This document shows, piece by piece, positions 1 to 6,580 of a stretch of DNA of 17,380 bases. The stretch is from Elusimicrobiota bacterium (lineage in GTDB: Bacteria > Elusimicrobiota > Elusimicrobia > UBA1565): assembly GCA_043819795.1 (NCBI GenBank), contig JBDREN010000241.1, positions 1 to 17,380 on the forward strand. Reading direction: 5' to 3'. How positions within the stretch are numbered: position 1 is the stretch's first letter; each line of letters begins with the position of its first letter. Below the pieces are notes generated by a model, which had not been told where the DNA came from, did not search any database, and saw nothing but the letters and a program-made list of their open reading frames with translations. A program made the translations under genes and the position numbers.

Positions 1-2232
1 GGCGTCCGGGCAGTTGTCGCAGGCGTCGCCCACCCCGTCGTTGAGGACGCGCGCGGGCTTGATCAGGTTGGTCTCCTGGTTGTTGGCGTGCTGCTCGTAG
101 TAGGCGAACACGGGCGCGTCGCACTCGAGCTTGGCCCCCGCCGCGGCGTAGAGGTAGTTCCCTCCGAAGAGCATGGCGTTCGGGTAGGGGTCGCTCTCGC
201 TTCCGCCGAGCAGGGATTCCTTGACGCTCCCGTCGGCTTCGTAGAGCGTGCAGGAGGTCGCGGGGGTGGGCGCGGCGATGGCGATGTACTGGATGTCCAT
301 CGGGATGCGGTACGCGGCGCTCAGCTCCCCGGCCGGCAGGAACGTGGTCGAATCGGTCCCGTCGGCGTCCGCCAGCTGATGCACGCCGATGGGGTTGTCC
401 GAGACGACATGGGCCGCGCGGCTTTGGCCGTGGGTTCCCTGCCCCCCGGCCCGGTATTGGCCGTCGGGCCCCAGCGCGACGCTCGCGCTCGTCCCGTCGC
501 TGTAGTATATCGTCACGTCGGCCCCGCCGGGCCCGGCCCCGATATCGAGGTTCTGGGAGGGCACGCCGTACCAGTCGGTGCCCGCGGGATGGAAGTTGTA
601 GCCGTCGCTGTTGTCGGTCGCCGAATGGGAGACTAGGATCGGCGCGTCGGAGGCGATCCTCGTCACCCCGGAGTTGGTGATGTCGCGGTCTATGACCCTG
701 GCGGTCCCCGCGGGCACGGATTCGCTCTGGACCAGGACGCCGCCGTCGTAGACGTCGACGTTCGCGTCCTCGAGCGCGTAGACGGAGAATCTATCCACGT
801 TTCTGGACGCCCTGTAGATGAACTCCGTGCCGGCGAACGAGGGGGGCAGGCACGGGGCTCCGCCGTCCGCCACCGTGTCCGCGAAGAACGCCTTGGCCCC
901 CGTGACCGGGGTCCCCAGGGGGGCGGTGAAGGAGCCGATCTCGCCCGCGTCGAGCTCCAGCACGGTGGAGCCGGCGGTGATGGTGTTGCCGTCCTCGTGG
1001 CTGATCACGGCGAAGGCGCCGTTGTTCGCGTTCACCACGTAGCAGATGTGGCTGGCGTGCTCCTCGTCGCTGTCGGTGTCCTCCTGGCCCGCGTTCCGGG
1101 CGTAGGGGCAGTTGTCGTCGATGTCGAGCACGCCGTCCTTGTCCGAGTCGTCGCACGCGTCGCCGATCCCGTCGTCGTCCATGTCCCGCTGGCTCGGATA
1201 GGCCAGCTCGGGGCAGTTGTCGCACGCGTCGCCCAGGGCGTCGCCGTCCGCGTCGGCCTGGTCCGCGTTGGGCGCTCCCGGGCAGTTGTCGCAGATGTCG
1301 CCCAGCGCGTCGCCGTCGCCGTCGGCCAGGCCGGGGTTGGAGGCCAGGGGGCAGTTGTCGCAGGCGTCGCCCGCGCCGTCGCCCGCGTAGGCGCGTCCCG
1401 TCAGTCCGGACGCGTGCCTGGCCTGGATCTCCGCGGGGGCCAGGGCCCGGTCGAAGATCGCGACCTCGTCGATGAGCCCGCTGAAAGGACGCTGCAGGCT
1501 GGGGCCGGGCTGGACGAGCATGCCGATGGTGTGCTGCGGCTGATCCAGGGTCAGGGTCAAGGCCGCGCCGATCAGCTCGGCGACCGGGACGCCGTCCAGA
1601 TAGACCGACGACGTGCCGGTGTCGCCCCTGTTCTCGTAGGTCGCGACGATGTGGTGCCACGCGTTCGGCGATACCACGCCCGGTCCGGTGATCAGATTCA
1701 GGTATCCGTCGGCCATGCCGTCCTTGTGGCGGACGGCGAAGCGGATGGAGCCGTCGTTCCTCAACTCGAAATGATTGTTGGCGTTTCCGCCGGGGGGAGT
1801 CGCTCCGGTCGCGTTCCAGATGCCGTGTGTCGTCGTTATATCATCGCTGTTGATCCAGGCCTCGATGGAGATGGCCGAAAAGTCGGTCGCGGGCGAGAAG
1901 GTGTACGACGGCATGTCCACGTAATCGTCCGCGCCGTCGAACCGCAGCGCGCCGTTGACCTGGCCGGATGCCCAGACCGGGCCGTGGAGGAGAGTCCCGT
2001 GATTGCCGCCCACGGAATCCCCCGCCGTCGTCCCGGAACCCTCGTCGAAGCTCCAATAGGCGACGGCGGCGTCGGTCTCGGCCTGGTCCGGGTTGGCCGC
2101 CGATGGGCAGTTATCGATCGCGTCATCGATCCCGTCGCCGTCCGCGTCCGCGGCGCGGGCGCACGGCGCCAAGGCCAGGCTCAGGCCCAGGGCAGACATC
2201 AGAATGGTGAAAAGGAAGTTTCTCGGCTTCAT
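1..2232 (-). CDS. Secreted modular protein: TSP3-like repeats with inserted LamG and IgGFc-binding-like domains (3' end runs off the window start)
   Basis: Not in the ORF track; hand-translated from ATG at 2232, open to base 1 (744 codons). [27 protein letters not shown] signal peptide, [15 protein letters not shown], LamG ([23 protein letters not shown]...[15 protein letters not shown]), DACDNCP repeats, and a domain with [31 protein letters not shown] motifs (IgGFc-binding-like, tentative). RBS AAGGAGG at 2240-2246. Confidence 0.9.
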
Positions 2233-2265
2233 GGTGGGTCCTCCTTGCGGTATCCCGACGACGTT

Positions 2266-5400: not shown

Positions 5401-6580
5401 TATCGTTCTCCGCGACCGTATCATCGTCGATCGCGACTTTTATCTCCAGTGTATAGTCCTCCAGGCTGCCTGCCGGGATCAGCGAAGCCTCGCCGCAGCC
5501 TCCGGGACCGGAGCTGACGACATACTTGCCGCCGCCGGCGTCCCAATCGCCTATCTCGATGAATCCATCCGCCGCGCCGTCGTCAAAGTCTTCGAATAGG
5601 ACCAGCGCATCGTCGCCGTCCTCCTGGCCCGGGTTGGACGCGCCGGGGCAGTTGTCGTCGCCGTCGAGGAGGCCGTCGCCGTCGGAGTCGTCGCAGACGT
5701 CCCCGGTGCCGTCGCCGTCGTCGTCAGCCTGGCCGGGATTGGCCGCCGCGGGGCAGTTGTCGCAGGCGTCGCCCACGCCGTCGCCCGCTTTGCCGTGCCC
5801 CGCCAGCCCCGCCTCGTAGCTGGCCTGGATCTCCGCGGGGCTCAGGGCGCGGTCGTAGATCGCGACCTCGTCGATCATGCCGTTGAAATATCTGTGGCCA
5901 TACACCATGCCGATCCTGATCGGGTTCGGATTGGACTGCATGGTTCCGTCATGGGCCACGCCGTTCGCGTACGCCCCGTTCAGGTATACCTTTACCCAGC
6001 TCCCGTCGAAGGTGCCCACCAAGTGGAACCACTGGCCGTACGGGATCGGGGTCCGGCCCGCCGGGTTCATGTCATAGGGGTTGCGCCACCACCCGGAAGG
6101 GGGGCGGATCTCGAAATTGGCCGTCCCTCCCTGGACCCAGAGCAGGAAGGACTCTTCCTTGCCCGCGACGTGGATGTCCCAGCCCGCTTGGGCGTAGACC
6201 CACGCCTCGACCGTGATGGCTTCGGTGATGTCCAGGGACGGGGAATTCGGCGCCTGGACATAATCGTTGGATCCGTCAAAGCTCAGAGCGCCGCCGACTT
6301 GGCCGGCCGTCCAGACGGGGCCGTCGTAGAGCGTTCCGTGATTGTCTCCCACGGAGTCCCCCGCGGTCGTCCCTTCGCCCTCGTCGAACTTCCATTGAGA
6401 GACCTTCCCGCCCAGGTCGTCGCTATCGGCTTGGTCGGAATTGGCCACCGATGGGCAGTTGTCGATCGCGTCGTCGATGCCGTCGCCGTCCGAATCAGCG
6501 GCTCGGGCGCTCGGCGCCAAAGCGAGGCTCAGGCCCGCGGCCGCCAGGATCATGGTGAAAAGGAAGTTTCTCGGCTTCAT
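2414..6580 (-). CDS. 1388-aa secreted modular protein: TSP3-like repeats, LamG, DUF1080-like beta-sandwich, right-handed beta-helix, MopE-like metal-binding motif, Cys-rich C-terminus
   Basis: Signal peptide ending ARA; many [15 protein letters not shown] units; LamG (WKFDEGEG...[15 protein letters not shown]); IYVDDDN...PYESIQDAI beta-helix start with [11 protein letters not shown]...DIGIDEY end; [36 protein letters not shown] upstream. Confidence 0.93.

Follow-up and report, generated by a model that had tools for sequence, protein, structure and literature searches.

In RTX adhesins, split domains have been described that project ligand-binding domains sideways, with Ig-like domains, the calcium-binding beta-roll, vWFA and CBM as hosts, and single ligand-binding domains are reported to be swapped among otherwise similar adhesins (main texts of Sherik et al. 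2024, PMC10865825; PMC12077191; bioRxiv 10.1101/2025.09.30.679566). In a study of the Dx[DN]xDG calcium loop, the available text mentions the binuclear site of thrombospondin by name (Rigden et al. 2011, PMC3123361). Thrombospondin-type repeats are also listed for the dockerin-type giant proteins of Omnitrophota, which the available part of a preprint presents as very large, secreted proteins with TSP3 and F5/8 (discoidin) domains and a proposed role in attachment (bioRxiv 10.1101/2023.11.21.568195).

The window analyzed here is a stretch of 17,380 nucleotides of an Elusimicrobiota bacterium (contig JBDREN010000241.1, assembly GCA_043819795.1). Two of its genes lie in tandem on the minus strand, have near-identical starts and encode arrays of a TSP3 unit of 23 residues, D-x-C-x4-N-x2-Q-x-D-x-D-x-D-G-x-G-D-x-C, with Cys at i and i+20. 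The array matched COMP at a phmmer E of 3e-35 and aligned to TSP-1 and TSP-2 as well (3fby, 1ux6, 2rhp), while TSP_3 (PF02412) and Laminin_G_3 gave Pfam matches over cut-off in both genes. Five units are split between the second and third Asp of DxDxDG by an inserted domain. The N-half comprises unit positions 1-15 with the first Cys and ends in QxDxD, and the C-half, DGxGDAC, comprises positions 17-23 with the second Cys. Such a split unit is called a socket and the inserted domain its cargo in the following list, where all features lie on the minus strand and all socket halves come from the split-repeat scan.

1..2232, minus strand: gene 1, ORF open at the window edge, with a signal peptide (by eye) and a TSP3 array with two split units
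2071..2115, minus strand: gene 1 socket 1, N-half
1381..2070, minus strand: gene 1 cargo 1, LamG/concanavalin-A-like, 230 aa (E 2e-26)
1360..1380, minus strand: gene 1 socket 1, C-half
1072..1116, minus strand: gene 1 socket 2, N-half
40..1071, minus strand: gene 1 cargo 2, 344-aa domain
19..39, minus strand: gene 1 socket 2, C-half
2414..6580, minus strand: gene 2, with a signal peptide (by eye), a TSP3 array with three split units and a Cys-rich C-terminal tail
6419..6463, minus strand: gene 2 socket 1, N-half
5783..6418, minus strand: gene 2 cargo 1, LamG, 212 aa (E 1e-30)
5762..5782, minus strand: gene 2 socket 1, C-half
5612..5656, minus strand: gene 2 socket 2, N-half
5042..5611, minus strand: gene 2 cargo 2, DUF1080/3-keto-disaccharide-hydrolase-like, 190 aa (PF06439, borderline)
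5021..5041, minus strand: gene 2 socket 2, C-half
3647..4837, minus strand: DUF1565 and right-handed beta-helix between whole units of gene 2, outside the sockets (control class)
3359..3403, minus strand: gene 2 socket 3, N-half
2981..3358, minus strand: gene 2 cargo 3, 126-aa domain with 4 Cys
2960..2980, minus strand: gene 2 socket 3, C-half
14582..15904, minus strand: free LamG and PKD gene, a control for socketed LamGs, with a Cys of the domain's own at each end of the LamG

The preliminary description of this DNA had proposed the five splits, and all of them are real, with QxDxD closing every N-half, DGxGDAC as every C-half, and coordinates that were correct within 3 bases. Both of its LamG inserts were confirmed by Pfam at the E-values listed, and its DUF1080-like insert reached PF06439 as a borderline match, with 25.9 bits alone (cut-off 26.8) and 31.5 bits in the whole protein. 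The Cys-containing insert has 4 Cys and no Pfam match, and its paralogues, at 62-68% amino acid identity, are socketed on contigs C98 and C203 beside different neighbours. The label "IgGFc-binding-like" for the second cargo of gene 1 received a weak lead from the ESM Atlas (score 0.95 to clusters with PF17517 in 11% of their members, low recognition) but no Pfam match at E<=0.05. Close paralogues of this domain are socketed on C240, C223 and C238, the last one truncated where the contig stops, while the three distant homologues that were checked all occur in proteins without TSP3 N-halves. The top fold match of the LamG in gene 2 was arabinanase AbnA domain 4 (Z 22.4, rmsd 2.4, 189 aligned). 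A promoter and terminator scan returned matches at chance level only.

The scan for split repeats with tabulated inserts that had been suggested at the outset yielded, for the source genome G000 (4.99 Mb, 241 contigs), 69 long splits in 20 ORFs on 17 contigs vs 300 intact units. This number is what remains of 75 non-canonical pairs once 5 short inserts and a single spurious pair are subtracted, and it leaves out one variant split in C15 and another that is truncated where C238 ends. Cargos of 112-387 aa fill about one unit in five, with up to 14-15 sockets per protein. Since 1 residue separates the halves in 276/276 intact units of the first scan and 112-387 aa separate them in the long splits, the split is not a matter of chance. 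Split units keep both Cys, and D17, G18 and D21 are conserved equally in the 69 split and 300 intact units, so the two halves are complementary. D13 is relaxed in split units (63/69 vs 298/300 intact), as is D15 (56/69 vs 293/300), and one predicted calcium site may often be weakened there.

The cargos fell into 16 clusters. LamG was the largest with 22 copies, closely followed by F5/8 with 19, while DUF1349/GH43_C2-like domains accounted for 5, CBM4/9 for 3, and CBM96 and DUF1080-like domains for 2 each; the remainder were three further clusters of 3 each and 7 singletons. The Pfam search, which covered 38/69 cargos and placed many family labels below cut-off, named LamG, F5/8, CBM96, CBM4/9, GH43_C2/DUF1349, PA14 and DUF1080, and at least 7/16 clusters had no Pfam match. 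Across the 20 ORFs, 22 distinct cargo-to-cargo adjacencies were observed. The 19 F5/8 copies lie in 2 genes and represent tandem duplication of whole filled units, and many cargos arose as such duplicates of complete filled units, not as swaps, which speaks against swapping as their only source.

Insertion was also seen in hosts other than TSP3. A 141-aa domain in C52 and C96, without a Pfam match and probably Ig-like as judged by pattern, is empty once and filled six times at one place with three unrelated cargos. LamG itself serves as a host and carries PA14, DUF1080-like and beta-helix-like inserts. Nested insertion is therefore a general habit of these proteins.

Mis-binning of the TSP3 contigs was considered and rejected, as the 43 contigs concerned (1.37 Mb) resemble the genome in their tetranucleotide profiles; hemL, hemB, purB, pyrE, gcvT and ppk are located on three of them.

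Contig C240 provides evidence on the movement of cargos. Gene 1 runs past the window edge onto this contig, the ends of C241 and C240 overlapping by 97 bases. C240 overlaps both the window start and itself by this length, which hints that a tandem copy follows gene 1 on its downstream side; self-looping contigs are C238, C240 and C104. In the 100 bases that lead up to the first socket, the C240 gene is 100% identical to gene 1, while its LamG shares only 57% of nucleotides with the LamG in the matching slot of gene 1 and 83% with that of gene 2. After the LamG, the C240 gene is 83-93% like gene 1. Informative sites (gene 1 : gene 2) were distributed 18:1 upstream, 45:192 within the LamG and 68:12 downstream, the last ratio being weaker evidence because gene 2 is non-collinear there. 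The step observed in the max-chi analysis of this mosaic was reached in 0/2000 permutations. Of the two switches, the 5' one lies where the N-half starts and the 3' one in the C-half or the next unit. An assembly chimera was considered for C240 and seems improbable, since its LamG is only 83% like that of gene 2 and hence not a copy.

Another three LamG cargos share 78-87% of their nucleotides, and the three genes that carry them are ~50% alike in the upstream flanks. Read from the sequences, cargo and scaffold histories are discordant, and cargo exchange occurred in the past on the direct evidence of the mosaic tracts. The proposed swapping of cargos, likely by recombination, is thereby supported as a past event, and the paralogues, as the C240 mosaic shows, do not carry cargo that is congruent with its scaffold. 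The accompanying idea that repeat DNA supplies the homology arms stood in part. The C240 switches lie within the repeat, but the arms are weak, with median identities of 69% and 79%, exact runs of 9-12 nt and freely varying third codon positions, and LamG ends appear to serve as well. A socketed LamG in C225 and a free LamG in C223 have the core in common and differ in the N-terminal shell and flanks, which points to crossovers also inside the cargo, within LamG's own conserved ends. Crossover zones differ from event to event. A LamG tree built by a quick method, with weak deep support, contained three socket/free sister pairs; as at least one such pair reflects a core swap, the sister pairs are no proof of independent entries.

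No orthologous locus was found in 30 relatives with the query used, the listed matches covering the LamG only, and 0/11 relative loci had a split, so the orthologue test rests on paralogues. One public DNA run contained 24% of the words, its unique parts were covered at a depth of ~2-6, and its joints stemmed from repeat matches of other organisms. None of the public runs holding the sequence was listed as RNA.

We consider it probable that, taken together, the TSP3 unit is opened in its DxDxDG loop, holds whole domains and likely re-closes, and that filled sockets likely move by recombination. The loop would open to carry whole, mostly carbohydrate-binding-type domains at a position that tolerates extra chain, with selection and not a DNA target site picking the site. 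The N- and C-termini of the cargo would be adjacent and stapled by the socket disulfide, and the unit would re-close via its Cys pair and calcium, holding each domain sideways off the repeat chain. Filled sockets would pass from one paralogue to another by gene conversion or by homologous recombination of the ordinary kind, for which any shared sequence, including repeat DNA and conserved LamG ends, could act as a crossover arm, and the proteins would be exported multivalent glycan or surface binders. It is conceivable, although we propose it only tentatively, that these proteins form a three-tier binder library without a dedicated enzyme, consisting of TSP3 sockets, LamG cores and probably an Ig-like socket, in which tandem arrays recombine and diversify the repertoires of cells (e.g., prey, host or substrate range).

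We regard it as unlikely that the socket is structural only, in the sense that a few ancient insertions, whole-unit duplication and rare accidents produced the present arrays and exchange was too infrequent to diversify them. Most cargo pairs are 35-85% alike and hence reflect old events, F5/8 and certain other families expand in tandem, and the LamG socket form including its end motif is common to other phyla and archaea, which fits one old insertion. Such a history sits poorly, however, with the C240 mosaic, where end tracts 100% identical to gene 1 enclose a LamG of the gene 2 type, with the presence of one cargo in different slots of unrelated genes, and with 16 unrelated cargo clusters at one site.

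The split could further be an artefact of register, the true unit running from DGxGDAC to QxDxD and the domains being beads between units. Pfam TSP_3 is indeed defined in another register, and circular permutation is possible in tandem repeats, but we judge this reading very improbable. A Cys-less motif precedes 48/69 split N-halves, so the sole evident partner of the N-half Cys is the Cys beyond the cargo, and Cys-less motifs also open the TSP3 arrays. Domains that truly lie between units form a separate class with a different junction; they account for 14 of the 16 long segments between whole units and include the beta-helix and four LamGs. Two placements exist, intra-unit and between units, of which the intra-unit one is commoner in G000. 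The intact unit with Cys at i and i+20 is moreover the one that aligns with COMP and TSP-1/2. Cys pairing inside the TSP3 repeat is known from thrombospondin structures, and Dai et al. 2017 reportedly name an intra-repeat disulfide in the title.

Splits were detected in other genomes as well. They occurred in 12/77 GTDB loci with 16 long inserts (Thermodesulfovibrionia, Nitrospirota, Nanoarchaeia, Euryarchaeota, Phycisphaerales, Planctomycetales, Thermoanaerobaculia, Terriglobia and Acidobacteriota), in 4 non-own proteins among 150 representatives, in 1 further protein among 98 (P0170, similar to P0027), and in 5/80 metagenome loci. While the external queries were biased to LamG and F5/8, the external cargos nevertheless include FG-GAP propellers (L092) and domains without assignment. 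In the order of the host, only 4/101 genomes had TSP_3 over cut-off, which points to a lineage-specific expansion in G000.

The position of the break was determined in an unbiased scan in which it was allowed at any unit position. Among the 62 long inserts scored in G000, 59 had their break after positions 13-17, 55 of them at 15-16. External breaks fell after positions 13-17 in 18/25 cases, and 2 more at position 18 proved to be main-site cases on inspection. Two of the G000 outliers look mispaired, while one LamG in C120 is truly inserted after position ~10; the external loci L082 and L100 look like C120, with an insert near position ~10. What had been put forward as a single fixed site is thus dominant but not unique. 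Inserts recur at the main site, in keeping with the permissive socket that was proposed, and breakpoints are not scattered at random. Inserts of 4-24 aa and shortened "NCP..Q..AC" units also occur at the main site, both in G000 and in metagenome loci, which loop tolerance predicts and a cassette mechanism would not. Structural tolerance appears to account best for the fixed site, and no DNA target site is needed. That cassettes are inserted at a repeat-encoded DNA site by a dedicated system, site-specific or based on a retro-element (integron-, shufflon- or DGR-like), is hardly credible, for although the very sharp site, the strong lineage-specific expansion and the self-looping contigs would suit it, the 22 tyrosine-recombinase and 4 reverse-transcriptase matches in this fragmented assembly all lie off the 17 long-split contigs, the imperfect arms and shifting crossover zones show no one conserved crossover site, and the main site takes short indels too.

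The preferred reading, an opened unit that likely re-closes around its cargo, was examined through cysteines and models. In the terminal-Cys test, 53/137 LamGs had both anchors and were scored. Within the terminal stretches tested, 24/35 free LamGs had a C-terminal Cys and 14/35 had Cys at both ends, while the count for socketed LamGs was 0/18. We infer that the disulfide of the socket would substitute for LamG's own Cys clasp. AlphaFold2 with 21 split rows alone left residues 22-27 and 238-269 at pLDDT <50; guided by 73 intact rows aligned across the gap, it placed both halves at pLDDT 75-94 (10-residue blocks). When the two halves were modelled as a complex with calcium, the score was 0.28 (mark 0.32), which counts neither for nor against re-closure. 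Fold searches with both models retrieved concanavalin-A-like folds only, with the repeat halves barely covered. In the external protein P0020, one socket holds 1117 aa made up of four tandem LamGs, which strains a simple rule of adjacent termini.

A minimal, 22-residue socket with putative Cys pairing takes jelly-rolls, lectin-like folds and beta-propellers. Its simple motif marks exact domain boundaries, so that unassigned cargos can be nominated as binding domains, and the TSP3 socket may serve as a loop-display scaffold. The split-domain principle hereby reaches, beyond RTX adhesins, proteins with signal peptides in uncultured bacteria and archaea. How giant modular surface proteins gain and trade domains is a matter left open in the available part of the giant-gene preprint, and the socket offers a concrete route for it.

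The preliminary description had offered the arrangement as one not known to it as a described system. The split-domain principle, the closest known concept, is in fact described in RTX adhesins, but a TSP3 split host was not found in the main texts of the literature searched. Graham et al. 2024 is said to be a survey of split domains and could mention TSP3 hosts. In the main texts of PMC10865825, PMC12077191 and bioRxiv 10.1101/2025.09.30.679566, the term "Thrombospondin" has 0 occurrences. With the type-3 (C-type) repeats of COMP, TSP-1 and TSP-2, the arrays have unit and Cys spacing in common, while the units of those proteins are contiguous in the aligned stretches of solved chains, compared with about one in five filled here. 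For the Omnitrophota giant proteins, compared by description only, the available text lists domains without nesting inside the repeat. The loop treated by Rigden et al. is inserted into other folds in the available text, whereas in the present proteins the loop itself receives whole folds, which follow its second Asp and precede its third. As in the RTX adhesins, judged by their main texts, a host element is interrupted by a domain and completed afterwards, with several nesting tiers, a repeat of calcium-binding type acts as host, and the RTX inserts have adjacent termini. Unlike in RTX adhesins, with their beta-roll, type I secretion signal and Ig-like extenders, a TSP3 unit of 23 residues with putative Cys pairing serves as host, signal peptides (by eye) stand at the N-terminus of the proteins, and the Pfam scan of gene 1 and gene 2 contained no RTX or Ig family. 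The numbers differ too, with up to 14-15 sockets per protein and 69 per genome here vs two or three per RTX adhesin in those texts. TSP3 as a host extends the split-domain principle: the socket works like the RTX split domains, in a protein that is not an RTX adhesin.

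Insertion of complete domains at a fixed site is also seen in a second type of host, a 141-aa Cys-containing domain without a Pfam match, which is encoded on contigs C52 and C96 of the Elusimicrobiota genome (G000). One empty and six filled copies of this domain were found, with the insertion at one site, and the cargos were fibrinogen-C-like as well as, with weak matches, SGL-like and glycine-rich. LamG, of which the genome encodes 137 domains, likewise holds inserts of its own (PA14, DUF1080-like, and beta-helix-like) in its N-terminal loops. In P0020, a protein from outside this genome, four LamGs occupy one socket and together span 1117 aa.

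C52, locus L015:4170-10493: 141-aa host domain
C96, locus L018:6407-9775: 141-aa host domain
C225, locus L027:9376-10536: LamG with own insert
C160:3-5663: LamG with own insert
Protein P0020: socket with four LamGs

When socketed LamGs were aligned (A1), their ends were conserved and their cores were nearly unalignable. One core was common to a socketed LamG on C225 and a free LamG on C223. Some free LamGs on C15, C160, C166, C191, and C197 follow directly on a Cys-less TSP3 motif plus D-x-C and have GxGYC at their end, and these are possibly intermediate between the free and socketed forms.

A giant open frame on C15 contains 14-15 socketed F5/8 domains and 12 LamGs, and in same-family relatives (G007:C17 and G013:C12) open frames of ~18,000-20,600 aa carry dozens of LamGs, with no TSP_3 match in these LamG-rich frames. 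Overlaps between a contig's own ends were found in C238 (141 bases), C104 (135 bases), and C240 (97 bases). This pattern would be expected if TSP3 genes formed small circles, or tandem arrays that have been collapsed.

C15:2-30037: giant open frame, at least 10,012 aa

Elsewhere in the window, no split units were found in the two LRR genes or the further TSP3 array. The Sel1-repeat/caspase and HipA-like kinase genes are situated between the TSP3 gene clusters, and a low-GC stretch (GC 0.54) lies at 8801-9400.

Window 10528-14400 and 16082-17380: two genes combining LRR, intact TSP3 and FIMAH, plus further TSP3 array
Window 6754-8811 and 9502-10455: Sel1-repeat and caspase-domain gene, and HipA-like kinase gene
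Window 2414-2650 (-): C-terminal tail of gene 2
Gene ends on C55, C98, C120, C131, C139, C155, C223, C225, C238, and C240: recurring C-terminal tails

A few interchangeable C-terminal tails recur across unrelated TSP3 proteins, namely a Cys-rich type without a Pfam match, FIMAH, a short Gly/Lys/Trp-rich type, and "RAERSG..VPH". These tails may be sorting or anchoring modules.
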